Positions 27,094 to 53,640 of a stretch of DNA of 64,000 nt are shown here, one piece after another. The position numbers and the translations under genes are program-made. Each line of letters starts with the position of its first letter. Position 1 is the stretch's first letter. Below the pieces are notes generated by a model. That model did not search any database. It saw only the letters and a list, made by a program, of their open reading frames with translations, and was not told where the DNA came from. This stretch comes from a virus: IMG/VR virus record IMGVR_UViG_3300022602_000029, positions 64,001 to 128,000 of that record; one strand, 5' to 3'.

Positions 27094-28152
27094 ATGGTAA
27101 AGAGCTTTGATATCTCAAAGTTCCGTAAGTCTATCACTAAAAGTATCGATGGCTTAGGAATTGGTTTCAATGATCCAACTGATTGGATTTCAACTGGCAA
27201 CTATGCCCTAAACTATCTTATCTCTGGGGACTTCTTTAAGGGGGTTCCCCTAGGTAAGGTTACAGTTTTTGCGGGCGAAAGTGGAGCAGGTAAGAGTTAT
27301 ATTTGTTCCGGCAATATTGTGCGTCATGCACAAGAACAAGGTATTTTTGTTATCCTTATTGACAGCGAAAATGCTTTAGATGAAGACTGGTTGAAAGCAT
27401 TGGGTGTCGACACTGGCGAACAAAAACTGCTTAAACTCAACATGGCGATGATTGACGATGTAGCAAAAACTATCCATGAGTTCATGAATGAATATAAAAC
27501 TATGGATGCTACAGATCGTCCAAAAGTTTTATTCGTCATCGATTCATTGGGTATGTTGTTGACTCCTACTGATATTAATCAGTTTGAAGCAGGTGATTTA
27601 AAAGGTGACATGGGTCGTAAGCCCAAGGCATTGACAGCACTTGTTCGTAACTGTGTAAACATGTTCGGTAGTTATAATGTTGGATTAGTTTGTACTAATC
27701 ACACATACGCAAGTCAAGACATGTTCGATCCAGATGATAAAATCTCAGGCGGTCAAGGATTTGTTTATGCGAGTAGTATCGTAGTTGCCATGAAAAAACT
27801 CAAACTCAAAGAGGATGAGGATGGTAATAAAATTAGTGATGTAGTAGGCATTAGATCAGCCTGTAAAGTCATGAAAACTCGGTATGCTAAACCTTTTGAA
27901 AGCGTCCAGGTCAAGATTCCATATTCGACTGGTATGAGCCCTACAAGTGGGCTGGTTGACATGTTTGAGAAGATGAATGTATTATCTAAAGTAGGAAACA
28001 AACTAGCCTACACCAATAAAGAAACTGGTGAAATAATGGCTGAATTCCGTAAAAATTGGACTGAAGACAAACTAAAGTTGATCATGCAACAATGGGATGA
28101 AAATTCAGTCAATCCAGTAACTACTGTCGAAGAGGAGGCTGAAGAAGCATAA
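27094..28152 (+). CDS. uvsX: RecA-like recombinase
   Basis: AGESGAGKS, DSENA, VIDSLG and SGG motifs. Confidence 0.95.
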   Translation: MVKSFDISKFRKSITKSIDGLGIGFNDPTDWISTGNYALNYLISGDFFKGVPLGKVTVFAGESGAGKSYICSGNIVRHAQEQGIFVILIDSENALDEDWLKALGVDTGEQKLLKLNMAMIDDVAKTIHEFMNEYKTMDATDRPKVLFVIDSLGMLLTPTDINQFEAGDLKGDMGRKPKALTALVRNCVNMFGSYNVGLVCTNHTYASQDMFDPDDKISGGQGFVYASSIVVAMKKLKLKEDEDGNKISDVVGIRSACKVMKTRYAKPFESVQVKIPYSTGMSPTSGLVDMFEKMNVLSKVGNKLAYTNKETGEIMAEFRKNWTEDKLKLIMQQWDENSVNPVTTVEEEAEEA

Positions 28153-40377: not shown

Positions 40378-40881
40378 ATGAAAACACTATATCTAGACAT
40401 GGATGGCGTAGTAGCCGACTGGGAAACCGCCGCCCGCAGGTTCATGGACAACCGACAGGTGCCCGATATCAATGGCCGCTGGCCCGACGGTGAATGGCAC
40501 AAGATCCGCGACAACAGGCACTTCTATAGAGATCTGCCTACCATGCCCGGAGCTGAAGACTTGATCACACTGGCACGACAGTTCCGAGACCAAGGGGGCT
40601 GGAGGCTCTGTATGCTGACCGCCATACCACACAACAATGACATGCCCGATGTTTACCACGACAAGATCGATTGGATGCGGGATCGCTGGCCCGAGATACG
40701 TGTGCACTTTGGCCCCTACTCACATGACAAACAGGTGCACTGCCAACCAGGTGATATATTGGTGGACGATCGCCCCTCCAACATAGCAGAATGGCAGGCC
40801 AAAGGTGGCGTTGGAATCGAAGTTAAAAACAGGGATCTGGCTTCAGCCATAGAAATACTGAGGAGCCGCTTCAGGGCGTAG
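40378..40881 (+). CDS. 5'(3')-deoxyribonucleotidase (HAD, NT5C-like)
   Basis: YLDMDGVVAD, MLTA and LVDDRPSN motifs. Confidence 0.88.
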   Translation: MKTLYLDMDGVVADWETAARRFMDNRQVPDINGRWPDGEWHKIRDNRHFYRDLPTMPGAEDLITLARQFRDQGGWRLCMLTAIPHNNDMPDVYHDKIDWMRDRWPEIRVHFGPYSHDKQVHCQPGDILVDDRPSNIAEWQAKGGVGIEVKNRDLASAIEILRSRFRA

Positions 40882-40963
40882 AGAGCCCAACAAGCGCGAA
40901 GCGCGAGCGGTAAAAAAGATTTTTTCACTATCTGATTAAATACTGTGTTAAAGGAGATGAGGA

Positions 40964-41056
40964 ATGTTAGAGTTCTTTGCCGTGAGCCTAGTGGGTTTGG
41001 CCCTGCTGATCTTATTCATCGCTATCTTTAGATACTTTAGTGGAGATGATCAATGA
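40964..41056 (+). CDS. 30-aa single-pass membrane peptide
   Basis: MLEFFAVSLVGLALLILFIAIFRYFSGDDQ; RBS and TAAATA upstream; ATGA-coupled to the next ORF. Confidence 0.5.
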   Translation: MLEFFAVSLVGLALLILFIAIFRYFSGDDQ

Positions 41057-41187
41057 GATTCTGGAAAGTGACCTATCTGTTAGGCGACAGCGAAAATACC
41101 ACAGTGATAAGGGCCCTAAATCGTGCTATGATAGAACGTAGCATACCATCAGATTGGCGGATCGTAGGAGTAGAAGAAATAAGATGA
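41053..41187 (+). CDS. 44-aa hypothetical protein
   Basis: ATGA overlaps at both ends. Confidence 0.5.
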   Translation: MRFWKVTYLLGDSENTTVIRALNRAMIERSIPSDWRIVGVEEIR

Positions 41188-41450
41188 CACACAAGACTAT
41201 AACATGGCAGCTGGGACTGACTGGCACTGAAGTGAAAGAAGGCACCAAACGACTGAGCAAGTTGCACGTAGAGCTGGATAGATGGCACAAGGCCAATGGA
41301 TTCAAACAGCGTATATTCAATCTACAGATAACCCGTCCCTATACCTACGAAGCTGTGATAGACACGACAGATCCCAAGATCGAGCTGTTTTTAAATACTT
41401 TCCTACTGACCGCTGGCTCACAGTATACGCTGACAACTGTAGGCCAATAG
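41184..41450 (+). CDS. Hypothetical protein
   Basis: Start set at the ATGA overlap at 41184. Confidence 0.6.
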   Translation: MTHKTITWQLGLTGTEVKEGTKRLSKLHVELDRWHKANGFKQRIFNLQITRPYTYEAVIDTTDPKIELFLNTFLLTAGSQYTLTTVGQ

Positions 41451-41687
41451 AAACAGCGTACAAGACTTTTCCTGTCGGAAAGTGACTCCACAGAGATAAG
41501 CGTTGTGCAGAGTCCAAGTATCCCAGCACCATTCTCTATAGTGAGGACCCACGGAGCGTTCTAGCCAATCTTCTACGCTAGAGACAGCCTGCACCCAATC
41601 TGGTTGCCCATTGAACTCTATTATGGGCCAAGGTGCCACCGCCCGGTAGGGTAACCGTAGAGCAGGATGGTCATACAGTGCGGGCAT
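41418..41687 (-). CDS. Hypothetical protein
   Basis: TAAATA 5 nt before the ATG. Confidence 0.65.
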   Translation of the reverse strand: MPALYDHPALRLPYRAVAPWPIIEFNGQPDWVQAVSSVEDWLERSVGPHYREWCWDTWTLHNAYLCGVTFRQEKSCTLFLLAYSCQRIL

Positions 41688-41902
41688 GACTTTATTTACA
41701 CAGGGCCCGAAAAAGGTCAGGCTAGGGCAAAAAAATTGCTGTGCAAAATTTGCGGTGTAGGGCGATCTAGATCTAGGTGGTTTTAATCTAAGTCACTTTA
41801 GATTTAGGGGAAAAAATGGCAAGCTAGCTGTAGCTTTTACACAACAGCTTGTGCATGCACCTCCCCACCCCAGGGGCCCCTCGGGTGCCAGCAGGCAGGT
41901 CA

Positions 41903-42178
41903 TCAGGCCGTGCGCCTGCGGGCCTTGAACATATCCACCAGGGCAAGGTCTGCAGTAGCCAGGTGGGGCTCACGTCTCGTCACTGGCGCGGCAGCGCTGT
42001 CCTTAGGTGTGAACAGGTTGACCGTAGCTGAGGTAGCTGTAGTTATAGCACTAGCTGTGCCCACTACTAGCCTGTAAAGGGTCTGCGTGATCACTGTGGC
42101 CACGATCCCAATGCCCACTCCTGCTGCCATGCTGACGAACTCGTAGTAGTGTGCTGTGAGGAAGAGGTGTAACGTCAT
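41903..42178 (-). CDS. Small membrane protein
   Basis: Hydrophobic AAGVGIGIVATVI segment; GGAG RBS. Confidence 0.55.
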   Translation of the reverse strand: MTLHLFLTAHYYEFVSMAAGVGIGIVATVITQTLYRLVVGTASAITTATSATVNLFTPKDSAAAPVTRREPHLATADLALVDMFKARRRTA

Positions 42179-42212
42179 GTGGGACTCCTAGGGTTAATAG
42201 TTAAGGGCGATG

Positions 42213-42416
42213 TTAGATCGTATCGTCGATGACTTCTGCACTAAGGCAGTCGTTGATGTAAAGCACAGGGCCTTGGCTGTATTCACGCACGCCCACCATG
42301 CTGGCATCTACCGCACACTCGTATTCCATGTTCATGCTGATCTTCACGGGCAGAGTGGGATCGACCCTGCTTAAGATCTCTATCAGTTCTGCTACTGTTA
42401 ATGTATCGTTTGTCAT
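42213..42416 (-). CDS. Small acidic hypothetical protein
   Basis: Own promoter at 42445-42473 and an AAGGAGC RBS. Confidence 0.7.
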   Translation of the reverse strand: MTNDTLTVAELIEILSRVDPTLPVKISMNMEYECAVDASMVGVREYSQGPVLYINDCLSAEVIDDTI

Positions 42417-42486
42417 AGTGTGCTCCTTTGTTTGCTATGTATGTATTATACAGTCTTTTGGATGACCCGTCAAAGTCTAGGGTCTT

Positions 42487-42735
42487 TCAGCAGTCTGGAT
42501 CGAAATCGCGCCATTCATCGGCTTCGGTGGGATCTTCTTCAGGCGCTTCTTCATCCCAGATGACTTCTTCGTCGATCACGCCTAGATCCTCGACAGTGAT
42601 CTCACCGTCGGTAACCCCTTGGAATGCTGTGCGGAAACTCTGATGCTCAGCTAGGAAATCCAGGATCTCCTCTTTAGAAGTGCCCTCAGGAACTGTCAAC
42701 TCTTGGCTTAGGGTGGTAGTAACGATAACTTTCAT
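42487..42735 (-). CDS. Highly acidic small protein ending EADEWRDFDPDC
   Basis: Start set at ATG 42735, behind an RBS and a consensus promoter. Confidence 0.7.
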   Translation of the reverse strand: MKVIVTTTLSQELTVPEGTSKEEILDFLAEHQSFRTAFQGVTDGEITVEDLGVIDEEVIWDEEAPEEDPTEADEWRDFDPDC

Positions 42736-42787
42736 GTCAGCTCCTTTGTTGTTCATGTATGTATTATAACCCCAAATCCTAGTCCTG

Positions 42788-42988
42788 TCAACCTCTAAGG
42801 ACATTGAAGATGGAGTTCTGTAAATCTGCCACCTCATCGCTGGCGACATAGAAGTCTGTGCGGGGATCCCAGTACTCGCCTGCCTTTGGATCGTAGTACA
42901 GGACACGACCGTTGGGATAGTGGAATGGACCCTCTAGGCCCTTACGGCTAGTGAACTCCTGATTGTGCTTGAAAACGGTGTATGCCAT
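42788..42988 (-). CDS. Hypothetical protein
   Basis: RBS and promoter upstream; GRVLYYDPKAGEYWDP motif. Confidence 0.7.
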   Translation of the reverse strand: MAYTVFKHNQEFTSRKGLEGPFHYPNGRVLYYDPKAGEYWDPRTDFYVASDEVADLQNSIFNVLRG

Positions 42989-43061
42989 TGTGGGCTCCTT
43001 GTTGTCTATGTATGTATTATACTGCCAAAAAAAAGACCCGAGTCAACCGTAGGGTCTTTGA

Positions 43062-43271
43062 TCATTCTAGTGTTACCTGCACTGCTGCCGCTTCCCAGTC
43101 TCTGAGGGCGAATGTGGTGTTGCCCGCTCGTATCACCATAGCTGATCCCTTTGAGGCTGCGTGCAGCTTCCTCACGACTTCTCCTGGGATGAAACCCAGT
43201 TCCTTGAGCCGGTCATCACAGCAGTGTGTGATGCGTGCAGTGATTCCCAGCTCTAGTTCAGTGAGATTCAG
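43062..43271 (-). CDS. feoA: FeoA-like (SH3-fold) protein with a CTG start; not in the ORF track
   Basis: Translated by hand: (M)NLTELELGITARITHCCDDRLKELGFIPGEVVRKLHAASKGSAMVIRAGNTTFALRDWEAAAVQVTLE. RLxELGFxPGE and FALRxxEA match FeoA. Confidence 0.75.
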   Translation of the reverse strand: MNLTELELGITARITHCCDDRLKELGFIPGEVVRKLHAASKGSAMVIRAGNTTFALRDWEAAAVQVTLE

Positions 43272-43522
43272 ATGTCATCCTCAAGGGCTAGCTCATCTAC
43301 GGCTGCGTTGAAATCATCGATGAGGTCCTGCAGGCTCAGTTGTGATCGCTCCTTCTTGCGGCGCGGCTTCACTGAGCTACCCTCTTGATACACTAGCCAT
43401 ACGTGATCACAGCAGTAGCTTTTGCCTGTGATGCTGGGCCGACCGCAGGCCTTGCTGAGATCCAGCACACCCTCGCCCAGGTAGGTACAGGTGGATTCGT
43501 GATAGTTGTCATGTGTGCTCAT
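43268..43522 (-). CDS. Cys/His protein resembling the GcrA C-terminal domain
   Basis: C-x14-CG-x6-SYCxxH-xxx-VYQ pattern. Confidence 0.5.
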   Translation of the reverse strand: MSTHDNYHESTCTYLGEGVLDLSKACGRPSITGKSYCCDHVWLVYQEGSSVKPRRKKERSQLSLQDLIDDFNAAVDELALEDDI

Positions 43523-43782
43523 CGTGAGACCTTTTGTTCTAGTTCGTTGATCTGTCGTTGATATCTGTTGATCAGCTCGCGTTGTTCTACCATGCCTTTG
43601 GCCGCGTGATCTAGGGCATCTTCGTATCGAGTTGCGGCGTCATGCTCACCTTCCTGCCGTGCTATCCAATCGGCCGCCCAGAACAGGGCCAAGAAGCACC
43701 AGAACTGCCAACCCCAGGAAGGCACTCCCAGGCTATCGATCAGGATGCCTAGGGTGCAGTAAATGGCTATGCGCTCGATCAT
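43519..43782 (-). CDS. Membrane protein with a coiled-coil tail
   Basis: Hydrophobic, Trp-rich N-terminal half. Confidence 0.6.
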   Translation of the reverse strand: MIERIAIYCTLGILIDSLGVPSWGWQFWCFLALFWAADWIARQEGEHDAATRYEDALDHAAKGMVEQRELINRYQRQINELEQKVSR

Positions 43783-44645
43783 GTGCGTCTCATGCAGGTA
43801 GTCTTGGCCATAGCTTGCCAGTTGGTAGGAAAGGCTGCTCTCAAGTCGGCCAGCTTCAAGACCATGCGCAGGCTCAGCTCGCGTAGCTTGTCCTTGTGAT
43901 CTGTTATGAAGGCCAACAGCTCATCCCTTACAACGGGGTCGAACTCATATTTGTCCAGCATACCATCGCCTACGATCTGATTGATCCTTAGCATCTTTTC
44001 GCGCTGTGTGTCCATCTGGAGATCGATGTAGTGGCAGCGACTCTCCAATGCGTCCAAGTGGCTACGTAGCTTCTTGCTCTTGACGTGCTCGAACTTGATG
44101 TTAGTGATGAATATGGCTGAGCCCTTGAACTCGAAACGATCTGGGATGCCTTCACTGCGCAACATACGGCTGTCTGTGTTCCAGGCTATCCATCTCTTGG
44201 CGCTGGAGTCTAGGGCACCTTTGAGTATGTTCAGACTCAGCTCATCCAACAAGATCTGATCGCAGTCATCGAAGACCACTACGTTCTTCTCAGCGGCAAA
44301 CTCATATAGCTTGCTGTAGAGACCTAGTGCGCTCATGGCACCCTTCACGATCTCGTATTTGGGTTTGCGTTCGGCCAAGGTGTCAAACAGGCCGTCCTTC
44401 TGGAGCACAGCTTCTACGCCAAAGCTCTTGCCTACGCCTGGAGGGCCACTCACGATCATTGCACGCACGGTGCCTGACTTGACTGCCTTGGTCATGTCGT
44501 CTAGGATCGTGAATCTCTCTCTCAATCTCTCGATGATCTCTTGATCGCTCTCCTTGGCTACCTCACGCTCGCGTTGTGCGATGGCTGCTGTGTCGAACTC
44601 CAAGATCGTGGTGCCCGCTGTGGGCTTGGTGCTGGCTTTGGCCAT
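43779..44645 (-). CDS. AAA+ ATPase
   Basis: Walker A GPPGVGKS, Walker B VVFDDCD, ALESR. Confidence 0.85.
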   Translation of the reverse strand: MAKASTKPTAGTTILEFDTAAIAQREREVAKESDQEIIERLRERFTILDDMTKAVKSGTVRAMIVSGPPGVGKSFGVEAVLQKDGLFDTLAERKPKYEIVKGAMSALGLYSKLYEFAAEKNVVVFDDCDQILLDELSLNILKGALDSSAKRWIAWNTDSRMLRSEGIPDRFEFKGSAIFITNIKFEHVKSKKLRSHLDALESRCHYIDLQMDTQREKMLRINQIVGDGMLDKYEFDPVVRDELLAFITDHKDKLRELSLRMVLKLADLRAAFPTNWQAMAKTTCMRRT

Positions 44646-44710
44646 GTATTGCTCCTGCGTTGTTTAAAATCGTATTATAACATTATTTACTAGCCGAGTC
44701 AACCGCTAGT

Positions 44711-44824
44711 TTATCCAAAAAGGTATCGGGCCAAGGCGTTGCCCAGCACTACCAACATGATCGTGCAGGTGGCCAGGGTGAGAGCAGCCAAGAGTAGCAG
44801 GAGAGGGATTGGATCGTCTTTCAT
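44711..44824 (-). CDS. 37-aa membrane peptide
   Basis: MKDDPIPLLLLLAALTLATCTIMLVVLGNALARYLFG; TGATG overlap. Confidence 0.5.
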   Translation of the reverse strand: MKDDPIPLLLLLAALTLATCTIMLVVLGNALARYLFG

Positions 44825-44997
44825 CAGTAGGTTTCCTTGACTATGTAGTAGATATCGTCCGGGTAGAGTTCCTTGAATGCATCGGTCTTGATGTAGTCGT
44901 TCAGGGCCTGTGCATTCATGAACTTGCGATGGTACACTCCCACGTGCGTGTCTTTACGGCATACGGTTAGGTATACGCTTTTTGCGTGTCCGGCCAT
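44824..44997 (-). CDS. 57-aa hypothetical protein
   Basis: MAGHAKSVYLTV...IVKETY; TAATG and TGATG overlaps. Confidence 0.6.
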   Translation of the reverse strand: MAGHAKSVYLTVCRKDTHVGVYHRKFMNAQALNDYIKTDAFKELYPDDIYYIVKETY

Positions 44998-45194
44998 TAC
45001 TTGTTGACCTTCACGTTAGTTTTGAATGCTGCCCCGAGGATGACCACTGCAGCCCAGGTCGAGAAATCGTATGGGATGTTGAGTGCGGGGAATAAGGTGT
45101 TCAGGGCCCACAGTGTGAGGAGCGGACCGATGGCCACCAGTACGGCTACCACGACGATGGCTCCCAGGAGCTCTGCTAGTTTGTTTGTTTCCAT
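44997..45194 (-). CDS. Small two-TM membrane protein
   Basis: Start set at ATG 45194 behind an AAGGA RBS. Confidence 0.65.
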   Translation of the reverse strand: METNKLAELLGAIVVVAVLVAIGPLLTLWALNTLFPALNIPYDFSTWAAVVILGAAFKTNVKVNK

Positions 45195-45230
45195 TTGTTT
45201 TCCTTTAGTGTTACAGCGGGGTCTTGGCAC

Positions 45231-45479
45231 TTAGTAGTGCATAGGATGACCTACGTAGTTGTAGTCGTCCATAGGGTCTAGTTCGTCTTCAACTTCGGGC
45301 TCATACTCGTCATCAGGGAGCATGTTATTGCTCTCCATCATGTCGCCTACGTCCGCATCGCTCATGTAGCAGAGGCAAGCTTCTAATACTGTGTCTGCGT
45401 CTAAGAGACCTTCAGCTAGTAAGTCCATTAGCTTGACTGTGTTCTTGCGTGCCACGCTGCCGTTGTAGTATTCTATCAT
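45231..45479 (-). CDS. Acidic small protein ending DDYNYVGHPMHY
   Basis: Own promoter and RBS. Confidence 0.7.
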   Translation of the reverse strand: MIEYYNGSVARKNTVKLMDLLAEGLLDADTVLEACLCYMSDADVGDMMESNNMLPDDEYEPEVEDELDPMDDYNYVGHPMHY

Positions 45480-45583
45480 CTAGTGCTCCTTTTACTGCTT
45501 AAAAACTTATTATAACGCATTCTGTCCAAAATGTCAAATGCGCTGTAATAAGCCCTTATGGGCTGTAGGGTTATTATATAACA

Positions 45584-45739
45584 TTAATCCACGTAGTAGT
45601 CAACCGTTTGCAATAGTGTGCTCATTGCGTTCTCTAACTCGTTAAAGCACTCCAGTTCCGCTAGTTGTACCCCATCGCATGTTGCCTCCAACAGCATAGC
45701 TTCCACTTCCGCTAGTTTAACAAGTATTGCATCTTTCAT
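45584..45739 (-). CDS. 51-aa acidic protein
   Basis: MKDAILVKLAEVEAMLLE...VDYYVD; own promoter at 45759-45787 and RBS. Confidence 0.65.
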   Translation of the reverse strand: MKDAILVKLAEVEAMLLEATCDGVQLAELECFNELENAMSTLLQTVDYYVD

Positions 45740-45822
45740 TTGTGCTCCTTAAAAACTTATTATAACGCATTTTGGCAAAACTGTCAAATGCGTTATAAAA
45801 AGCCCTTACGGGCTTAGTGTTA

Positions 45823-46008
45823 TTATGCGTCCAGTTCCATTTCCTCTATGTTAGTAACAACATCTTTCAGTCCGTCCTCTAACGCCTCTGCTATTAAATT
45901 ACGCTGTGCTGTCTCAGCGTTAACTCTGCTACTGTAAACGCCTGTATTATAAAAAGCGTTCTCATCGTCGCCCCATCCCAGCACTTGCACAATGTAAACT
46001 TTTTGCAT
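45823..46008 (-). CDS. Small acidic hypothetical protein
   Basis: AAGGAGC RBS; promoter at 46035-46063. Confidence 0.65.
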   Translation of the reverse strand: MQKVYIVQVLGWGDDENAFYNTGVYSSRVNAETAQRNLIAEALEDGLKDVVTNIEEMELDA

Positions 46009-46108
46009 GCCAGCTCCTTTGTTAGTGTAAGTGTATTATACAATAAAAAAGAAACCCGCACAAATGGCGGGCCTTTGGGAGTGTGGCCCAAAAGCCACAC
46101 CACCATGA

Positions 46109-46714
46109 TTACTCGTTGACTGCGCTCACACCTCCGTCTAGATCGATCTCTTGATTCTCCTCGTCTTCATACTCGGCAATCGTTTCTGATATCGCAAACA
46201 TCTCATCGAGATCCTCGGGGATGGCATCCTTGACTTGATCGCTAGTCATGTCAGAGAGATTGTAGCCTTCATCCCCGTCTGCATCAAACACGCCACAGAA
46301 GGCCATTCCGGATTCATAGTAATAGGCCTTTACACCGAACCCTAGATCAAGTAACCTTTCGTAGGCAGCGATAGGAGGGGCCCAGGCACTGTCAAAGTAA
46401 AAACTGACGCTGTTAGAATCTAACCTAGTGATACTGCCATCATCACCCCCGACGTCCCACTTAGTGCCCCACTCGTTGACACAATAATCATACCAGTTTT
46501 TGTAACCGTGTTTGATCTTGTTGTCTAGCTCTTTCTGCTCTAGTGCCGCCTGCTCATCAGGATCTCCCACACGGCCTGCCACGATCTGTAGATCGGATGG
46601 GATAGGAATAAACTCATCGAGCAGTCTACTATCAGCAAATGCTCGTGCCGCACGCTCGATCATCTCTGGGTCTGTGTGGGTTAACTTGAGGTTGTTGTTA
46701 CACCAGTTTGGCAT
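46109..46714 (-). CDS. YubB/Api92-like ferredoxin-fold protein (DUF1281-type)
   Basis: MPNWCNN, WGTKWD, FDSAWAPP and YYESGMAFCG motifs. Confidence 0.75.
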   Translation of the reverse strand: MPNWCNNNLKLTHTDPEMIERAARAFADSRLLDEFIPIPSDLQIVAGRVGDPDEQAALEQKELDNKIKHGYKNWYDYCVNEWGTKWDVGGDDGSITRLDSNSVSFYFDSAWAPPIAAYERLLDLGFGVKAYYYESGMAFCGVFDADGDEGYNLSDMTSDQVKDAIPEDLDEMFAISETIAEYEDEENQEIDLDGGVSAVNE

Positions 46715-46723
46715 AGGATCTCC

Positions 46724-46885
46724 TTAAATGGTTGAAGTGTCTATTATACTGTCTGCTAGTAAGACTGTGATCTCATAGGCTTTTTTACAACGGAATCTCG
46801 CCTGCGCTTTTTGCTGTGCCTCATAGGAGCTCGAGGCCTGGACAGCGATCTCCTTGCCGCGATATAGGCAGATGTAATCTCTCAT
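46724..46885 (-). CDS. 53-aa hypothetical protein
   Basis: MRDYICLYRGKEIAVQASSSYEAQQKA...; AAGGAG RBS. Confidence 0.6.
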   Translation of the reverse strand: MRDYICLYRGKEIAVQASSSYEAQQKAQARFRCKKAYEITVLLADSIIDTSTI

Positions 46886-47067
46886 GCAGTCTCCTTTGGG
46901 GTCATAAGTTTACGCATATCTCTCATAAACAAACGGATGGCTTCTGCATCCGGTGCGAACAGTTCATCCCTGAGATCCCACATCTCTGTGGCCGCCATAA
47001 GGATGTCACAGTTGGTGTTTTGCTCGGCATACGCTTGTACTCTCTCACACGCTTCTGCTATTAACAT
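46882..47067 (-). CDS. Small hypothetical protein
   Basis: GGGAGC RBS and a TATAAT upstream. Confidence 0.6.
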   Translation of the reverse strand: MLIAEACERVQAYAEQNTNCDILMAATEMWDLRDELFAPDAEAIRLFMRDMRKLMTPKETA

Positions 47068-47159
47068 AAGTGCTCCCTTTAAAAGTAATATTATAGCGTC
47101 AAATTAGATTGGACTTACATGGGCGTGGCTAAAAAGCCACTTGGTCCCAATGCCTGGTA

Positions 47160-47345
47160 TTAGATATCGTATTGGTCAGCGTACCATTCGTCGTCGATCA
47201 TGTTCTGGCGATTGCGGAACTCGTTGTAGTCACGCTCGTCTTCAGCCATGTTTTCCTCAACTTGTGCGCCTGCTTGGTCTAGTGTGAGACCTTGTGCTAA
47301 CAGCTCTGCGATCTGTGCGTTGTACTCTTCCTGGCTATAAAACAT
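47160..47345 (-). CDS. Highly acidic small protein
   Basis: Own promoter at 47372-47400 and RBS. Confidence 0.65.
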   Translation of the reverse strand: MFYSQEEYNAQIAELLAQGLTLDQAGAQVEENMAEDERDYNEFRNRQNMIDDEWYADQYDI

Positions 47346-47408
47346 AAGTGCTCCTTTGTTGCTATGTGACGATTATACTGCCAAATAATACCCGAGTCAA
47401 CCGTAGGG

Positions 47409-47663
47409 TTAATATTCGTAGAACTCAACCGTAGGATCCAAGGCCTTGAGCTCTGCGGCCACTTGTGTCAGTTGCTTGTAGCGGCGCTGGACTTCACTGC
47501 GAGGTAACTCACCATCACAGCTAAGGTTCTCAGGGCTTAGTGCCGCATCGATGTGTGCAGCGAGTTGGCGGCGGCCTACTGCTGTAGTGATCTCATACTG
47601 GCGGCCGTTGAACATGGCGTTCCACTTGTTTTGCTGGGCGATGTAGGCTTTGAGTGCTGTCAT
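47409..47663 (-). CDS. Hypothetical protein
   Basis: Own promoter at 47684-47712; LSPENLSCDGE motif. Confidence 0.7.
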   Translation of the reverse strand: MTALKAYIAQQNKWNAMFNGRQYEITTAVGRRQLAAHIDAALSPENLSCDGELPRSEVQRRYKQLTQVAAELKALDPTVEFYEY

Positions 47664-47775
47664 ATGTGCTCCTTAAAAACATTATTATACTGCCAAATAA
47701 TACCCCAGTCAACCTTAGGGTCTTTCTCTCAGTCCTTCCCTGCACGCTGCGTCGTGAAACCTGATGACATGGTCG

Positions 47776-47815
47776 TGAAAAAGCCCCAGAGATCCAACGT
47801 TAGGATCCTGGGGCT
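47776..47815 (-). terminator. Intrinsic terminator downstream of the wHTH gene
   Basis: On the minus strand: AGCCCCAG-GATCC...GGATC-T-CTGGGGCT followed by a T-tract. Confidence 0.75.
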
Positions 47816-47856
47816 AGTGCCTGGGGAGCGACTACCAGGACTTTGGGAGCAACCTA

Positions 47857-48132
47857 TTAAAGGGTGATGCCCAGGGCCATGGCCTTGTAACCTAGAGCTA
47901 CTAGCTCCTGGCTTGGGGTTCCCATTACATACTCTACCACGTGAGCGTTGTTACCTGCTACACGGTTCTTACGATATACAGCGAAACCATGCTGACGAAC
48001 ACGGCTGACCTCAGCGCTGATGTTTTTGATACCAAAACGCTTTTCAGCTTGGCTAGCAGTAATACGCTCGCCGGCCTGTAGTGCCTTGAATAACTTGTAT
48101 GCTTTGGTTTCTTGATTGAACTTCTTAATCAT
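47857..48132 (-). CDS. Winged-helix DNA-binding protein
   Basis: KLFKALQAGERITASQAEKRFGIKNISAEVSRVRQHG HTH pattern followed by a beta-wing. Confidence 0.6.
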   Translation of the reverse strand: MIKKFNQETKAYKLFKALQAGERITASQAEKRFGIKNISAEVSRVRQHGFAVYRKNRVAGNNAHVVEYVMGTPSQELVALGYKAMALGITL

Positions 48133-48179
48133 TTTTGTTGTTTCCTATATGTTGCTGTACTTAAACAGTTACATATATA

Positions 48180-48470
48180 TTACGCTTTCTTTACTGGCTT
48201 TGCAACTGGTTTTTTATCCAACTTCTTACTATTTCGTCCAACTGATCTAATGCTTGTTTCATTCTTCGCTCCAAATTCTTTTGTTACGTAATAGCGGATT
48301 AGGGATCTCTGGATCATCGTTACGAGATCCCCGTTGTCATCCGTGATGAACCGGACCGGACAGCGTCCCCAGGTGCCCAACCTTTGGAACTCTTCGAACC
48401 ACTTGCGATGGGCCTTGAGTTCCGGGTCAAAGACTACCCAGGGTCTACACATGTATGAGAGTCTACTCAT
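48180..48470 (-). CDS. Hypothetical protein with a basic tail
   Basis: ORF preceded by the GACCCCGCTG motif. Confidence 0.6.
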   Translation of the reverse strand: MSRLSYMCRPWVVFDPELKAHRKWFEEFQRLGTWGRCPVRFITDDNGDLVTMIQRSLIRYYVTKEFGAKNETSIRSVGRNSKKLDKKPVAKPVKKA

Positions 48471-48498
48471 TGGGTATTACAGCGGGGTCTCTGTATGT

Positions 48499-48906
48499 TT
48501 AGAAAGGTGCGTCTTCGAGATCGGCCTTAGTAGCGATACCTAATGGAGCCATGCCCTCTAGCGCTGGAACCTGTGGAGTTACCGCAGCCTTAGCTGGAGT
48601 TTCTTTCTTAGGCTTCTTAGCTTCTTTGTTAGGCTTTTGCTCTTTCTTGGCAGCCTGTGTAGAGACCCCACGCTTCTCAGCGGCAGCTTCGAGAGCGGCA
48701 CGCACGGCTTTGTTGCCGTTGTCAAAGTTGATGCTCAACAGGTATGCTACAGCATCTTCCTTGGTCATGGGGTTCTTGAGCTCGATGATATCGATATCTT
48801 TGTGCCCATTTTTACGTAGTACCTTGACACGCATAGCGTCATTGCAGAAGCGGACTTTGAACTCACCGTTTTGTTTTGAAACTCCGGCATGTGTGAACTT
48901 AGACAT
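48499..48906 (-). CDS. Hypothetical protein with a Lys/Ala-rich tail
   Basis: Start set at ATG 48906 (AAGGAG RBS); promoter at 48959-48987. Confidence 0.7.
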   Translation of the reverse strand: MSKFTHAGVSKQNGEFKVRFCNDAMRVKVLRKNGHKDIDIIELKNPMTKEDAVAYLLSINFDNGNKAVRAALEAAAEKRGVSTQAAKKEQKPNKEAKKPKKETPAKAAVTPQVPALEGMAPLGIATKADLEDAPF

Positions 48907-48983
48907 GTTAATCTCCTTGTAAATGTCTGTGTGTGAAAAATAACTAACTGGAACTATTAATATAGCACAGCTAGTTCGAACTG

Positions 48984-49259
48984 TCAACTGTTAATAGTTT
49001 CGAAAGGGCTCAGATCTTCGGTCTGTGGCTGATCCGCCACACCCTCACCATCCAACCAAGCTAACACCATCTCGATTGGAATCTCGAGCACGTTGGCGAT
49101 GGTTTTGGCACTCATGCCGTCGATGTAGAGTTGCTCGATATCATATGCGATGTCTTTCATTGCGCTCATTTCGTTCTCCAGTTTAGTGATTTCAATCTCA
49201 TCCCTAACCCCTCGGCTAGGGCTTTCCCTTAGTGCTTGTAGTCGAGCATGGATACTCAT
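48984..49259 (-). CDS. Small HTH-like protein
   Basis: GMSAKTIANVLEIPIEMVLAWL pattern; RBS. Confidence 0.6.
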   Translation of the reverse strand: MSIHARLQALRESPSRGVRDEIEITKLENEMSAMKDIAYDIEQLYIDGMSAKTIANVLEIPIEMVLAWLDGEGVADQPQTEDLSPFETINS

Positions 49260-49271
49260 AGTTGCTCCTTG

Positions 49272-49760
49272 TTAAGCGATTAGTTCCATAGTGTCAGAAA
49301 CAGAAGCCAATGCTTCAGCTAGTGGCACTAGCTTGTTGTAAAACTTCACGTCTGATTCGTAGGTGTTGCCCGCATACCACACACCATCCTGCATGATGTA
49401 GTACCATTCAGCGCCGCAGCCTTCAGCACGCTCAAAGAACTTGTCAAAGGTGTCGTCTACCTTCCACTCAGTACCAGTCTCGCCGCGATCGCGTCCGTAA
49501 AAGGTACAGCTATCACCGTGCTCGGCATCGTAGGCTGCCTGCTGATCTTCAGTGAGATCGTATGTGCTGAATGCATGCTTCTCTCCGATGTTCTTCTTGA
49601 GGCTGCTGAGATCGCCCAGTGATACTAGCTGGTTGGCCTTTGAGCTGTCGTAGTGTTGGGCTAAGAGTTGGCCATTGTGCTCTAGGTAGCCATCCCAGTG
49701 GCAGTATACGCTCTTGCAGTTGCTGCCGTGCATGACTCCGATGCGTGATCTTGTTCCCAT
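49272..49760 (-). CDS. Hypothetical phage protein (MGTRSRIG...YCHWDGY type)
   Basis: Own promoter at 49794-49822 and RBS. Confidence 0.75.
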   Translation of the reverse strand: MGTRSRIGVMHGSNCKSVYCHWDGYLEHNGQLLAQHYDSSKANQLVSLGDLSSLKKNIGEKHAFSTYDLTEDQQAAYDAEHGDSCTFYGRDRGETGTEWKVDDTFDKFFERAEGCGAEWYYIMQDGVWYAGNTYESDVKFYNKLVPLAEALASVSDTMELIA

Positions 49761-49818
49761 AAAGTTCGCTCCTTTTTGTTTAACAATAGATATATTATAC
49801 GATCAAAACTGCCGCCCG

Positions 49819-50043
49819 TCAACCAAAGGCACGCAATAACCCTACAACCATTATGGCTATTGATATCACGTTCACTGTCAGCTGTGGGCGATTCTTGACC
49901 CGATAGGCCCAGAAGGTAAAGGCCGCTGTGCCTACGGTGAAGCTCACGATGTTCCAGGGATAGGCCGCGGGCCCCACGCTGTTGAGTGCATGCCCTAGTA
50001 CTATGAGTACTGCGCCCGCCCACTGCACATGATCTAGCTTCAT
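49819..50043 (-). CDS. Small multi-pass membrane protein
   Basis: Three hydrophobic segments. Confidence 0.65.
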   Translation of the reverse strand: MKLDHVQWAGAVLIVLGHALNSVGPAAYPWNIVSFTVGTAAFTFWAYRVKNRPQLTVNVISIAIMVVGLLRAFG

Positions 50044-50312
50044 ACCACTTCCAACATGTTAGCTGGCACCTTCCAGAGACCCTCTGTGGTGCTGACCGTG
50101 ACGTATTTCTGTGCGATCTTGGTCACACTGCCCTGCATGGTTCGGCCGCGCCGCACGCTGTTAAAGGTCACTGCCTGCCCTAGGCGTAGCCCGCGCTTGT
50201 TTTCAGAGATCAGCCTGTGACGGGCGAACTTGACAGCTTCAGTGATGGTGTTCAATTCATCATTAGTGAACGAACCATGGATGATGGCTTGGTTGACTTG
50301 ATCGATGTTCAT
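50040..50312 (-). CDS. Hypothetical protein with an SH3-like C-terminus
   Basis: Own promoter at 50334-50362 and RBS. Confidence 0.65.
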   Translation of the reverse strand: MNIDQVNQAIIHGSFTNDELNTITEAVKFARHRLISENKRGLRLGQAVTFNSVRRGRTMQGSVTKIAQKYVTVSTTEGLWKVPANMLEVV

Positions 50313-50358
50313 GAGTGCTCCTTAAAAAAACTTAGTATACTATCGGTTTTACCATTTG

Positions 50359-50763
50359 TCAAGCTTCTTTATAGTGCTTCCACTTGTTGTGATCTCCTGC
50401 TCGCTTGCCTTTTTCCGAATGGCATAAACTACAGAGTTCCTGTAGATTTTGTGGACGATTGTCCGTGTTATCACCGTTCTTGTGATCTACTTCTGTGCTT
50501 AGTTTAAAGCCTGTAGATGCTACCAAGTCCCAATCTACTACACAGGGGAACCCTAGCCTGCTATTAATGTTAGAACAACGATTTTTCTTGAACCTTTTAA
50601 CCCCCGGAGCCAATGGATAATCCATATAGCTGTTCTTGTGACAAGTGCCGCAGAACACTCTATATCTCACATCTGATCCACCTACTCGTCCCCTCTGAGT
50701 GGCGCAGAGACTGCCACAGCCTGGGTTGATACAGATCGGTCTAAAATGTAATACTCGTCCCAT
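50359..50763 (-). CDS. HNH endonuclease with Zn-binding motifs
   Basis: EVDHKNGDNTDNRPQNLQELCSLCH. Confidence 0.8.
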   Translation of the reverse strand: MGRVLHFRPICINPGCGSLCATQRGRVGGSDVRYRVFCGTCHKNSYMDYPLAPGVKRFKKNRCSNINSRLGFPCVVDWDLVASTGFKLSTEVDHKNGDNTDNRPQNLQELCSLCHSEKGKRAGDHNKWKHYKEA

Positions 50764-50816
50764 AAGTCGCTCCTTGTTAGTCTATGTCGCTATTATACTG
50801 CCAAAATAAAGACCCT

Positions 50817-51137
50817 TCAATCTCCCCGGGTATCAGTGTTGAGCTCTGGGCGCAACTGCCTGCGTAGCTCCACTTCTCTGCGGTGCGCCTCGGCCTTGCC
50901 CCTGATGACTTCTAACACTGCTACAGTGATCTGGCTCTTGTCCTCTAGCAGCCTCAGCACTGAGCAGAGGCTCCAGTCCTTGGCCTCCGTGTGCGCACGA
51001 TAGAAGTGCTTGGCAGCACGGGTCCTGGCGCTTTTCAACGCTGTAGACTCTGTCTTAGCCGTGACACCCACGTAGCGCAGTGTGCCCACTGTCAGCTGAT
51101 AGATCACATGATTTCGATCGGTTCTTTTCTTTCTCAT
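50817..51137 (-). CDS. GIY-YIG-like nuclease-domain protein
   Basis: VIYQL...RYVGVT; R..KH; HRREVEL...PELN. Leaderless from promoter 51144-51172. Confidence 0.65.
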   Translation of the reverse strand: MRKKRTDRNHVIYQLTVGTLRYVGVTAKTESTALKSARTRAAKHFYRAHTEAKDWSLCSVLRLLEDKSQITVAVLEVIRGKAEAHRREVELRRQLRPELNTDTRGD

Positions 51138-51200
51138 ACACATATTATACAGTCGGTTTTACCATTTGTCAACCCTATGCTTGTAAAGATATGTAAAGCT

Positions 51201-51461
51201 TCAATCAGTAGGTCCCTTCTGCACCCTAGCCGCGGGATCTCCTCCGAGGATCCTCTTGATCTCAGTATCTGGATCACCCCGGGCCCTGGCCGATCTCCAT
51301 TCCGTTTCTCGCTGCTCGTCCTGAGCGCTGTCCTCTGTATACTGTCCGGGGCACACAGCATAGTCTGAATCACAGGCCGTGCCCCACAACAGCTCCGCTA
51401 AGACCCAGATCAAGAACACCACGAGGAACATGGTTTCTAGGGTCCAATCCGTCTTTTTCAT
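51201..51461 (-). CDS. Small membrane-anchored protein
   Basis: Hydrophobic N-terminus; GAAGG RBS. Confidence 0.5.
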   Translation of the reverse strand: MKKTDWTLETMFLVVFLIWVLAELLWGTACDSDYAVCPGQYTEDSAQDEQRETEWRSARARGDPDTEIKRILGGDPAARVQKGPTD

Positions 51462-51484
51462 AGTTAGATACCTTCTTTGATCTT

Positions 51485-51745
51485 AGAGAAACCCCGGCAG
51501 GACCTTCACGATCCCTGCCGAGGCTCAATCTGGGCTACTGCTAGTTCAGTTCCCAGAGCCCTCCTCCCCGTTTATGACTACCTCATATACGGTATAGCAC
51601 GCGGCTGCCTCCGCGAGGATTCTAGCACAGCACGGCTCCATGATGATCGCTCATCTCAGCTAGGCTGCCTCCTTAGTTCCGGCGCTTATCTAGACCACGG
51701 CAGCGGCTAGATCAAACCCGGGATTCTCTGTGCTATAGGCTTATA
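51485..51745 (-). ncRNA. Candidate ~260-nt structured small RNA
   Basis: Promoter at 51752-51780, several clean hairpins including a GNRA loop, and a terminal GC-rich hairpin; no credible ORF. Confidence 0.5.
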
Positions 51746-52088
51746 GTCACTAGTATACAGCCAATACACTACTAGGTCAACGTGTATATAGTACTAGACA
51801 CATATACACTCATGTAGCTATACACACATGTAGACATATACTCTAGCTCAAGATCCACACGCACATACCAGGACGGCTCTTAGCAGCGGGGTCATTTTAG
51901 ATCTAACTGTATATAGCTGGCTATATGGTCCTAGACCGTAGGGGCGCAGAATCAGGGGATTTCTGGTAAAATCGGTAGGAAAAACTGTGAAAACCATACC
52001 TAGATCTGTTGTTTCTACGCTGAAATCTAGCGTAATAAATCTTGACAGGCCGTTTGGCGAGACAGGCTATGCCAAAATACTTTTCAAG

Positions 52089-52141
52089 TTATCCACAGGC
52101 TATCCACAGCTTATACACATGTTATACACTCGTTATCCACT
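52089..52141 (+). repeat. Five tandem DnaA boxes at 11-bp period
   Basis: TTATCCACA 52089, CTATCCACA 52100, TTATACACA 52111, TTATACACT 52122, TTATCCACT 52133. Confidence 0.85.
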
Positions 52142-52485
52142 GGGTTGTCAACGTAGAAGTCACCCTGCTATCCCCTGCTAGAGCTTTACAGCGGGGTCAT
52201 CTTACAGTACAGCCAGAGTTAACTAGAGTTAGCATCTATCTTCTACTAGAAGATCTGGGCTATTCTAGCTTTTTTTACCGCTGAGCCTTACAGGCTAACT
52301 ACGGACTAACTAAGGGTTAACTAGCTACAGCGGGGTCTTTACAGCTATTAGACTATTCGTGTATACTGTGTGTACTGCGATTAGATATCTTATACGGGCA
52401 TTTGTATCTAGAATCACTATGAGTAGCCGGTGATGTGTGTCACTAGCACTTAGACATATTGCTTCTTGGCTATAAATATCTCTAT

Positions 52486-53640
52486 ATGAGATACAAAGAA
52501 TTCGCACCTACTGAGTCTGTTACAGCTGGTACATCTGATTGGCAACCGCTTTATCAGCTTTCACGACAGCTATATCAGCACGTCTATATCAAGGCTCTGG
52601 GACCGCGTGTTAGAGTACAGGTCAAGGACCTAGACAGCGTCTACACAGATCGCGATGGTAGTGATCTAGATGGTAAGATAGATCTAGAGTTTTGGCTAGA
52701 CGCTCCGCATGACTGGGACGTTATTAAGCAGAGCTACGAAGCTGGTGAGGATGATCACTGGCTAGTTGACTATCACATCACAGAAGCCGCTGATCAAGTA
52801 GCTGATGCTATACGTCGCTACTATGGCGATACTTGGGCTGAGATCAGCAATGAGCTAGAGGGCGGTTGGGGAGTGGATGGATCAGTCACAGAAGATGTGC
52901 AGTCGGCGGAACCGCTACCTCTGCGTGGCTATGAGAATCTCTACGTAGAAGATAGTTCACAAGGGCCCTTGCTCTATGGTGTAGACCTAGAATGGCACGG
53001 GGAATCGGGCATCATAGGTTGGTTTGACTTCACGGCTAATCTCTCGACTGGTGTATTCGAGATAACTGGTAATAGGGCCAACAGAACTAGTGGGGGCGAG
53101 TTCGACACTGACGGTGACCTAGAGCGGTGGATCGAAAGCTGTATCGAGGACGCACAGCGCGAGTATGGTACCGATTGGGATGATATCGATAGCGAGCTAC
53201 ACGGCAGCTGGGGAGTAGATGACACTGATGAATCCCTTGGTCAAGTGGCCAGCTTAGAAGCTACACCCATAAAAAACATCGATTCAGATCGTCTACAGCA
53301 GGCCATCACTACCATAGCCCAGTTGGTGCACGATCGACAGATGGCCTATGGTGTGGCCCAGCGTAGCACCCTAGAAAAGGAACAGGCCGCCAGATACCAA
53401 AAACGCTACGCCGCTGTAGCCGCAGATCGACTCAAGGCAGAACAGGGCGAACTGGCCGTGGCAGATCTGGCTACGGCCCTGTATCGATATGTCTATCAAC
53501 ATCAAGCAGGGCACCCCATGGGCGGTAGCAAGAGCCATAACCCCCTGCTACGTGACTTTTTAGAAAATGATGTTACTGTGTCAGTAGATGATCAAGGCGG
53601 ACTGCATCCCGAAGAAAGCAGTTGGGGTGTCGACAGCTGA
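52486..53640 (+). CDS. Acidic three-module protein; each module ends in WGVD
   Basis: Start set at ATG 52486 (MRYKEF), 7 nt after TATAAATA. Confidence 0.7.
   Translation: MRYKEFAPTESVTAGTSDWQPLYQLSRQLYQHVYIKALGPRVRVQVKDLDSVYTDRDGSDLDGKIDLEFWLDAPHDWDVIKQSYEAGEDDHWLVDYHITEAADQVADAIRRYYGDTWAEISNELEGGWGVDGSVTEDVQSAEPLPLRGYENLYVEDSSQGPLLYGVDLEWHGESGIIGWFDFTANLSTGVFEITGNRANRTSGGEFDTDGDLERWIESCIEDAQREYGTDWDDIDSELHGSWGVDDTDESLGQVASLEATPIKNIDSDRLQQAITTIAQLVHDRQMAYGVAQRSTLEKEQAARYQKRYAAVAADRLKAEQGELAVADLATALYRYVYQHQAGHPMGGSKSHNPLLRDFLENDVTVSVDDQGGLHPEESSWGVDS

Follow-up and report, generated by a model that had tools for sequence, protein, structure and literature searches.

Why do most of the small genes in about ten kilobases of a giant phage genome carry a strong host-type promoter of their own, and what part do the sequences around these promoters play in the turnover of the genes behind them? 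The locus lies at 42417-51780 of the stretch analysed here (the window, 64,000 nt), which corresponds to bases 64001-128000 of IMG/VR record IMGVR_UViG_3300022602_000029, a single virus record of 193,746 bp, classed as linear and ~54% complete. Our answer, to which we assign a probability of about 0.8, is that the array is the early hyperplastic region of a T4-like giant phage, built from cassettes of the promoter early stem-loop (PeSL) type and shuffled by recombination.

The phage is an uncultivated, freshwater, distantly T4-like giant phage. Among the proteins encoded in its record are a major capsid protein of the T4 type (Pfam Gp23, E 3e-80), a tail sheath protein of 1144 aa, a DnaB-like helicase and a Dam-type methylase. 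The closest cultured relatives are the PA5oct-type Pseudomonas giant phages, with 46-51% protein identity, and none of 50,697 phage records matched the 10-kb region in a megablast search. The relatives used in this work were drawn from IMG/VR and from JGI metagenome contigs; the comparison set consisted of 80 IMG/VR loci, 1.2 Mb in all, around homologues of the array gene g22 (64-80% identical). The array is the cassette-rich part of a minus-strand block of small genes, which sits between plus-strand blocks and has a GC content of ~0.49-0.51 versus 0.35-0.43 in the plus-strand flanks. The coordinates of the genes and cassettes are given in Table 1.

On the minus strand of 42445-51780 we found 14 TTGACA-N17-TATAAT sites with at least 10 of 12 matches (-35 starts at 51780, 51172, 50820, 50362, 49822, 48987, 47712, 47400, 46771, 45787, 45537, 44702, 42791 and 42473), four of which match at all 12 positions and seven at 11. 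In a 15th promoter, at 43047, a T-run lengthens the spacer to 19 nt, and in two further promoters only the -10 box is good (TATAAT at 47090-47095 and 46035-46040). The total of ~17 agrees well with the first-pass annotation, which had counted about 16 sigma70 promoters on this strand, 13 of them near consensus with a 17-nt spacer. On the plus strand of the array there was no N17 site at the same threshold, and in the genome-wide site list the 14 sites form an unbroken run. Such a series is far above the chance level: 300 dinucleotide shuffles of the array strand gave a mean of 0.28 sites and a maximum of 3, and the density of 1.5 sites per kb compares with 0.114 per kb-strand in the rest of the genome (Poisson P ~1e-11), a background rate that predicts ~1 site for the array. 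As an independent check we used a profile hidden Markov model (HMM) trained solely on the cassettes of the relatives. It produced 17 matches in 42418-51782, all of them on the minus strand, and only six, weak ones, in the rest of the 194 kb, thus 17 of the 23 matches in the record fall in this block of 9.4 kb.

The same architecture runs through the related loci, in which 903 promoters lie on the array strand versus 126 on the other. The clade consensus, derived from 739 unique cassettes, extends past the two hexamers and includes a GG before the -35 box, a start region of the ACATACATA type and an A-rich leader. Possession of an own promoter is conserved gene by gene. It was present upstream of most homologues of g06 (40 of 41), g08 (52 of 61), g11 (31 of 32) and g22 (138 of 149), and was rare or absent upstream of those of g15 (1 of 44), g05 (0 of 35), g09 (0 of 44), g23 (0 of 84) and g24 (0 of 122). 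Most small genes are led by a promoter of their own, and some share one, as do g08, g09 and g10. In the gene map of PA5oct the surroundings of the NrdC.10 homologue consist of densely packed operons, not of single-gene units.

A cassette is ~55-75 nt long and is made up, in this order, of GG, the -35 box, a 17-nt spacer, the -10 box, the start region, the A-rich leader, AAGGAGC and ATG. The AAGGAGC sequence, located 5-7 nt before the ATG, ends ~11 of the 17 window cassettes, so the shared leader with this ending and a small open reading frame (ORF) behind it, as described earlier, is found in the majority of them; in the clade, GGAG occurs 15-24 nt after the -10 box in 413 of the 739 cassettes. 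Between the -10 box and the ATG the leader has unusually little structure, with -3.3 kcal/mol compared to -7.3 kcal/mol in random segments of the same strand. The AT content directly upstream of the cassettes is 0.55-0.57 versus 0.51 farther upstream, which does not amount to a marked AT-rich region. The upstream gene commonly has its stop codon within the -35 box or not more than 15 nt from it, and in 170 of 934 unique clade cassettes, by far the commonest single offset, this codon is the TGA of the -35 hexamer itself (examples in the window are at 49819-49822, 48984-48987, 50359-50362 and 42788-42791). Because of this overlap most units have no room for a terminator.

Some of the cassettes are near-copies of each other. 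In family D1, 47372-47409 and 47684-47721 are 95% identical over 38 nt, in D4 45490-45564 and 45740-45814 are 85% identical over 75 nt, and in D9 50330-50362 and 51140-51172 are 88% identical over 33 nt. The four repeated stretches that had been noticed before were all recovered in place, within the larger families D1, D2, D4 and D9. Near-identical neighbouring cassettes flank g11, g17, and g02 and g03 together, as would be expected from insertion by cassette recombination, in which a single crossover joins a circle to a resident cassette. An alternative is that we are dealing with an ordinary early region, in which the cassettes are alike through selection for a strong promoter and ribosome-binding site, and breakpoints at other places would destroy genes. 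Dozens of early promoters are usual in many T4-type phages. Selection of this kind does not readily account for long identical stretches at functionally unconstrained positions, such as the 16 of 17 spacer bases that are shared between the promoters at 47400 and 47712, or the 75 nt common to the cassettes at 45537 and 45787.

Gene order was compared by tblastn of the window array proteins against the related loci. The relatives have a partly conserved backbone consisting of g06-g07, g08-g09-g10 and g22-g23-g24, followed by the genes of the plus-strand flank; the unit behind cassette 14 (g22-g25) can be regarded as the conserved anchor unit of the array. The position of g04, g05, g11, g15, g18, g19, g26 and g27 varies between relatives. 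In many of them g11, g27 and g15 form a single operon upstream of g06, with g11 as its first gene, and in the window they occupy three separate sites, each behind its own cassette. Neighbouring window genes with no promoter between them were adjacent in the relatives in 227 of 258 occurrences, those separated by a promoter in only 40 of 99, and g07-g08 makes up 32 of these 40. Promoter-bearing junctions thus break far more often than promoter-free ones, a difference that is not expected of an ordinary early region.

The breakpoints themselves were located in pairs of moderately close loci, where 76 of 132 (58%) fell within -40 to +70 of a -35 start, an interval that covers 20% of the positions. 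In two cases the empty site could be identified. The locus L074 contains a 1128-nt insert between two cassettes, whereas L079 has at this place one hybrid cassette, the left part of which corresponds to the left and the right part to the right cassette of L074. The same hybrid-cassette pattern was seen at a 493-nt insert in the comparison of L066 and L048. Hybrids with halves matching the two cassettes that flank the insert in a relative are difficult to reconcile with promoters that merely resemble each other through selection. The position of g26 also varies: it lies after g10 in L089 and in most relatives, and after g25 in the window and in L081 and L082, and homology ends in cassettes on both sides.

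The closest relative was the metagenome contig L084 (3094 nt), which is 98.3% identical to window segments 44504-43006 and 42428-41641. Between these matching flanks it has 808 nt in comparison with 577 nt in the window, and three other small ORFs replace g26 and g27. Homology ends just after the -10 box of the cassette at 43047 and resumes at the Shine-Dalgarno sequence of the cassette at 42473. Two of the three incoming ORFs have homologues elsewhere in the arrays of other relatives; no homologues of the incoming genes were found in the genome studied here. A fixed order and content of cassettes across the relatives, which the first-pass annotation had named as the outcome that would speak against its proposal, is clearly not what we see: both vary, even in a relative as close as L084, with breakpoints inside cassettes. 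Its suggestion that the cassettes are shuffled by recombination is supported by the variable order, the hybrid cassettes at empty sites and the replacement in L084. Taken together, these sequence comparisons show that gain, loss, replacement and movement of genes take place at the cassettes, which act as joints, and that a promoter-led gene or small operon is the unit that moves.

It must be noted that several observations weigh against this interpretation. The adjacency counts are not phylogenetically independent; g04 and g05 are never adjacent in the relatives, despite having no promoter between them, and g07 and g08 are adjacent in 32 of 34 cases despite the promoter between them. The breakpoint-distance test gives a significant result against random positions but is weak evidence, because about half of the array gene junctions carry a cassette and breaks that are limited to junctions would therefore often fall there. 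If only viable junctions survive selection, breakpoints could come to lie at cassettes that are not mechanistic hot spots. The spacers upstream of orthologous genes are scarcely more alike (0.34) than those upstream of unrelated genes (0.31), as an ordinary early region would also have it. The near-identical comparison rests on one relative fragment of 3.1 kb (L084). Promoter activity and early timing are predictions from the sequence. Finally, with a record that is ~54% complete, a recombinase could lie in the missing part. On balance we consider it unlikely that the locus is just an ordinary early region, and prefer an early region shuffled through its PeSL-type cassettes.

Such an array might work as follows. 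Upon entry of the DNA the unmodified host RNA polymerase would fire all array promoters, leading to the production of many small proteins, mostly of unknown function. The transcripts would probably read through and build up along the array, since it has few terminators and upstream genes frequently stop within the -35 box that follows. Exchange would take place by homologous recombination over 30-70 nt of common cassette sequence, probably via the UvsX-like system of the phage (a candidate recombinase gene is listed in Table 1), without the requirement for a dedicated site-specific recombinase.

The array had originally been called integron-like, which would imply capture and reordering of the cassettes at fixed sites by a site-specific recombinase of their own. 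There is a certain resemblance to bacterial integrons in the small, mostly one-gene units with recurring boundary sequences, in the short inverted repeats at some of the boundaries, in the variable content and order, and in the common gene pool. Other features differ. No match to the tyrosine or serine recombinase families (Phage_integrase PF00589, Resolvase PF00239) was found in the 194-kb record, which is ~54% complete, nor among the array proteins, and we found neither attC-like sites nor a common structured 3' site. Integron cassettes are promoterless and stand behind a single promoter; here it is the opposite, each unit having its own. The crossovers occur at variable points (in the spacer, after the -10 box, at the Shine-Dalgarno sequence), which fits homology-driven exchange. 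The lack of an integrase or resolvase in the record and the variation of the crossover point within the cassette make site-specific capture of the integron kind so improbable that we do not retain this part of the earlier proposal.

Nucleases encoded in the array could also be responsible for gene mobility. In T4, homing endonucleases cut, and the repair that follows copies neighbouring genes. If the products of g02 (GIY-YIG-like) and g03 (HNH) cut nearby DNA, repair could copy their neighbours between co-infecting phages in a similar manner. The product of g03 matches HNH families, the homologues of g02 occur at differing positions and in both orientations in relatives (L045, L047), and the two genes are jointly flanked by the near-identical promoters of family D9. 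However, this mechanism could account only for g02, g03 and their neighbours, whereas the events in L084, L074/L079 and L066/L048 are far from any nuclease gene and have cassette-to-cassette crossovers. Moreover, g02 has no match to a Pfam or PHROG family, and its nuclease nature is suggested by a motif recognized by eye. We think it very unlikely that nuclease-driven mobility shaped the array, and return to homologous exchange between PeSL-type cassettes.

Hairpins are part of the name of the PeSL cassettes, and the first-pass annotation had assigned a promoter-hairpin-ribosome-binding-site structure to each unit. When 74-nt windows around each promoter were folded and compared with shuffles, only three of the 17 cassette regions were better than the shuffles, namely 45787 (z -4.4) and 45537 (z -3.1), together with the pair of terminators that precedes 46040 (z -4.2). 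About six other cassettes have a short stem of 5-8 bp with the -35 box in the loop, the clearest being that at 43047, where a T-run comes after the stem. Among the 739 unique clade cassettes, stems enclosing the -35 box occur in 10% (3.5% with permuted partners) and spacer hairpins of at least 5 bp in 10.3% (2.5% in shuffled sequences). In a general test the folding energy upstream of the promoter was not enriched (-7.7 vs. -7.2 kcal/mol in random segments), and the idea of a hairpin in every cassette was dropped, upstream folding being no better than random. Where hairpins are present they overlap or precede the promoter, and none was found between the promoter and the ribosome-binding site. 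A minority of the cassettes thus have genuine hairpins, but the proposed order of elements does not hold and most cassettes do without them. In L084 (1450-1480, compared to window 43025-43060) the -35 box at 43047 is destroyed (TTGACT altered, loss of 1 nt), and the stem and the T-run are intact. As these survive the loss of the -35 box, the hairpin may be retained for a role of its own, possibly that of a terminator.

It is instructive to compare the array with the PeSL cassettes of cultured phages. These were defined in RB49 and phi1 (Arbiol et al. 2010, PMC2839356), and have also been described in T4/PST and KVP40/nt-1 (Arbiol et al. 2010, PMC2839356; Comeau et al. 2014, PMC4122927). They consist of a near-consensus sigma70 promoter with an N17 spacer and have a Shine-Dalgarno sequence and an ATG at the 3' end, and they are found upstream of ORFans in a plastic region (PMC2839356, PMC4122927). 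The crossovers of the RB49/phi1 mini-circles are between the -10 box and the ATG, and the five sub-classes include stem-loops between the boxes, over the -35 or the -10 box, or upstream (PMC2839356). The cassettes studied here match this description in most respects. They have the near-perfect TTGACA-N17-TATAAT promoter, the Shine-Dalgarno sequence and the ATG at the 3' end; their density is similar (eight in ~5 kb in RB49, ~17 in 9.4 kb here); they precede ORFans in a plastic region, and the phage has a T4-type capsid gene; where close relatives differ by an insertion, a deletion or a replacement, the difference ends in cassettes and a hybrid cassette is left at the empty site; the crossovers fall between the -10 box and the ATG; and the hairpins, where present, are between or over the promoter boxes or just upstream, as in the sub-classes. 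The likeness to PeSLs that had been pointed out at the outset is therefore correct, although the reference to RB43-type phages is not, as RB43 is named only in connection with PeSL-like sequences near g43.

There are also differences. The phage is only distantly related to the PeSL phages, the stem-loop is present in a minority of cassettes (clade-wide in ~10% with the -35 box in the loop and in ~10% as a spacer hairpin), no marked AT-rich region lies upstream, and the -35 box often supplies the TGA at which the upstream gene stops, leaving most units without a terminator. Promoter and terminator activity in vivo and detectable excised mini-circles are also among the characters of PeSLs. With the early promoters and hyperplastic regions of T4 the array has in common the many strong host-type promoters, the small non-essential early genes and their location on the strand opposite to the structural genes. 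The array promoters differ from T4 early promoters in being nearer to the E. coli-type consensus and in having an extended start region and leader, which results in recognisable repeat families.

A second, strand-specific motif, (A)AGACCCCGCTG(TA), has exactly five copies in the 194-kb record (Table 1). All five are intergenic minus-strand copies that lie within the array or at its head. Its distribution in the relatives is 24 vs. 0 by strand, and the same junctions are kept (g08/g09 and g18/g19); in L060 and L002 it forms short arrays of its own with a spacing of 300-400 nt. The motif might serve as a phage-specific promoter, as a binding site or as another type of joint between cassettes. 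Two of the window copies have a start codon within 11-25 nt downstream; the GACCCCGCTGTA motif was also considered as a MotA-box-like middle promoter, a candidate that was rejected since in the two cases with such a distance there is no room for a -10 box. A more far-reaching view would see in the array a system for gene exchange that is actively maintained, works without an integrase and has two types of joint, the sigma70 cassette and the strand-specific AAGACCCCGCTGTA motif, which is confined to this part of the genome, is kept at the same gene junctions in relatives and forms short arrays of its own at the head of the early region. In this scheme AAGACCCCGCTGTA would be either a phage-specific promoter, corresponding to the middle-promoter cassettes ('PmSL') of phage nt-1, or a site for protein binding or recombination, and the hairpins with the -35 box in the loop could be targets of the neighbouring small nucleases. 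We regard this scheme as tentative and rather doubtful.

Other signals were searched for as well. The T4 late-promoter word TATAAATA was not enriched in the record (5+5 occurrences vs. ~11 expected per strand) and could therefore not be used for contrasting early and late regions; late transcription probably uses another signal. The divergent region between the array and the plus-strand genes has a cluster of DnaA-box-like 9-mers (TGTGGATAA and near variants) at 52089-52145. A tRNA scan of the window found none, and an Rfam scan of 40500-53000 gave nothing near threshold. The 290-nt stretch behind the first promoter (51462-51751, minus strand) ends in a terminator-like hairpin near 51490-51530 and may be a non-coding RNA or a long leader; no Rfam family reached threshold with it, the best one being gyrA RNA with 22 bits vs. 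a threshold of 45. In the next cassette the ATG of g02 is only 7 nt after the -10 box, a spacing that is kept upstream of the g02 homologues in six of seven relatives, and because of this short distance the g02 mRNA is probably leaderless.

The products of the array genes provide few clues to function. Among the ~30 proteins, clear matches to Pfam and PHROG families were limited to g03 (HNH), g10 (winged helix-turn-helix, HTH), g22 (AAA, NrdC.10-like) and g25 (FeoA); the other matches were weak and to domains of unknown function (DUF), and there was no match to a known anti-defence family. The g06 protein belongs to a widespread viral family without an assigned function, and protein-atlas look-ups of array proteins returned viral hypothetical clusters only, apart from DUF1281_C for g15, which is just a lead. 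Most of the proteins encoded downstream of the cassettes have no family or belong to PHROGs of unknown function, and about one third have no homologue in 160 related loci. Twelve array proteins have an isoelectric point of 4.1-4.8, and the net charge is -30 for g15, -21 for g27 and -18 for g18; such acidic proteins are compatible with DNA mimicry, which is speculation. That the array is a library of host-takeover or anti-defence genes, as proposed previously, is a reasonable guess and plausible. The g25 ORF, with its FeoA domain (Pfam E 6.6e-11), has no ATG, GTG or TTG start at the 5' end, and the arrangement is identical in L084; presumably an unusual codon serves as the start of g25, or its translation is coupled to that of g24.

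Table 1. Features of the array and other elements mentioned in the text, in window coordinates.
Feature	Position	Strand	Description
Minus-strand block	41000-51780	-	~31-33 small genes (g01-g33), early hyperplastic region; from ORF and ribosome-binding-site reading
Cassette 1	51462-51780	-	Promoter 51752-51780 (TTGACC/TATACT, 10/12), then 290-nt untranslated leader before g01 (51201-51461)
Cassette 2	51137-51172	-	12/12 promoter, drives g02 (50817-51143)
Cassette 3	50764-50820	-	Drives g03 (50359-50763; HNH endonuclease, Pfam HNH_3, PHROG HNH families)
Cassette 4	50313-50362	-	Drives g04 (50040-50312) and g05 (49819-50043); promoter 88% identical to cassette 2 over 33 nt
Cassette 5	49761-49822	-	Drives g06 (49272-49760) and g07 (48984-49259); g05 stop is the TGA inside the -35 box
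Cassette 6	48907-48987	-	Drives g08 (48499-48906), g09 (48180-48470) and g10 (47857-48132; winged HTH)
Cassette 7	47664-47712	-	Drives g11 (47409-47663); 95% identical over 38 nt to cassette 8, which is 3' of g11
Cassette 8	47346-47400	-	Drives g12 (47160-47345)
Cassette 9	47068-47122	-	Weak; good -10 box (47090-47095), poor -35 box; drives g13 (46882-47067) and g14 (46724-46885); no HMM match
Cassette 10	46715-46771	-	Within end of g14; drives g15 (46109-46714)
Cassette 11	46009-46105	-	Two strong terminator hairpins, T-run, TATAAT (46035-46040); drives g16 (45823-46008); z -4.15, HMM match
Cassette 12	45740-45815	-	Terminator hairpin, 12/12 promoter inside second inverted repeat; drives g17 (45584-45739); family D4, z -4.37
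Cassette 13	45480-45565	-	Copy of cassette 12 (85% over 75 nt); drives g18 (45231-45479), then g19-g21 (44711-45194); z -3.13
Cassette 14	44646-44702	-	Drives g22 (43779-44645; NrdC.10-like AAA ATPase), g23, g24 and g25 (43062-43262; FeoA-like)
Cassette 15	42989-43060	-	8-bp stem, then T-run, -35 box in loop, 19-nt spacer; drives g26 (42788-42988); left crossover of the L084 replacement
Cassette 16	42736-42791	-	12/12; drives g27 (42487-42735)
Cassette 17	42417-42473	-	Drives g28 (42213-42416) and g29; right crossover of the L084 replacement, at the Shine-Dalgarno sequence
(A)AGACCCCGCTG(TA) motif	45212-45223, 48478-48489, 51882-51893, 52187-52198, 52326-52337	-	
RecA/UvsX-like recombinase gene	27094-28152	+	Pfam RecA match, E 2e-18

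For specialists of T4-type phages the result will be expected rather than surprising. PeSL shuffling had so far been described in cultured T4-type coliphages, vibriophages and a cyanophage; it is extended here to freshwater giant phages that form a large uncultivated clade. With more than 900 cassettes in 1.2 Mb, units defined by their promoters, a common pool of small genes and one replacement caught at 98% identity, this clade is a natural data set for the turnover of early genes. The genes that move are obvious candidates for functions in host takeover and counter-defence, and the array can serve as a shortlist for functional screens.

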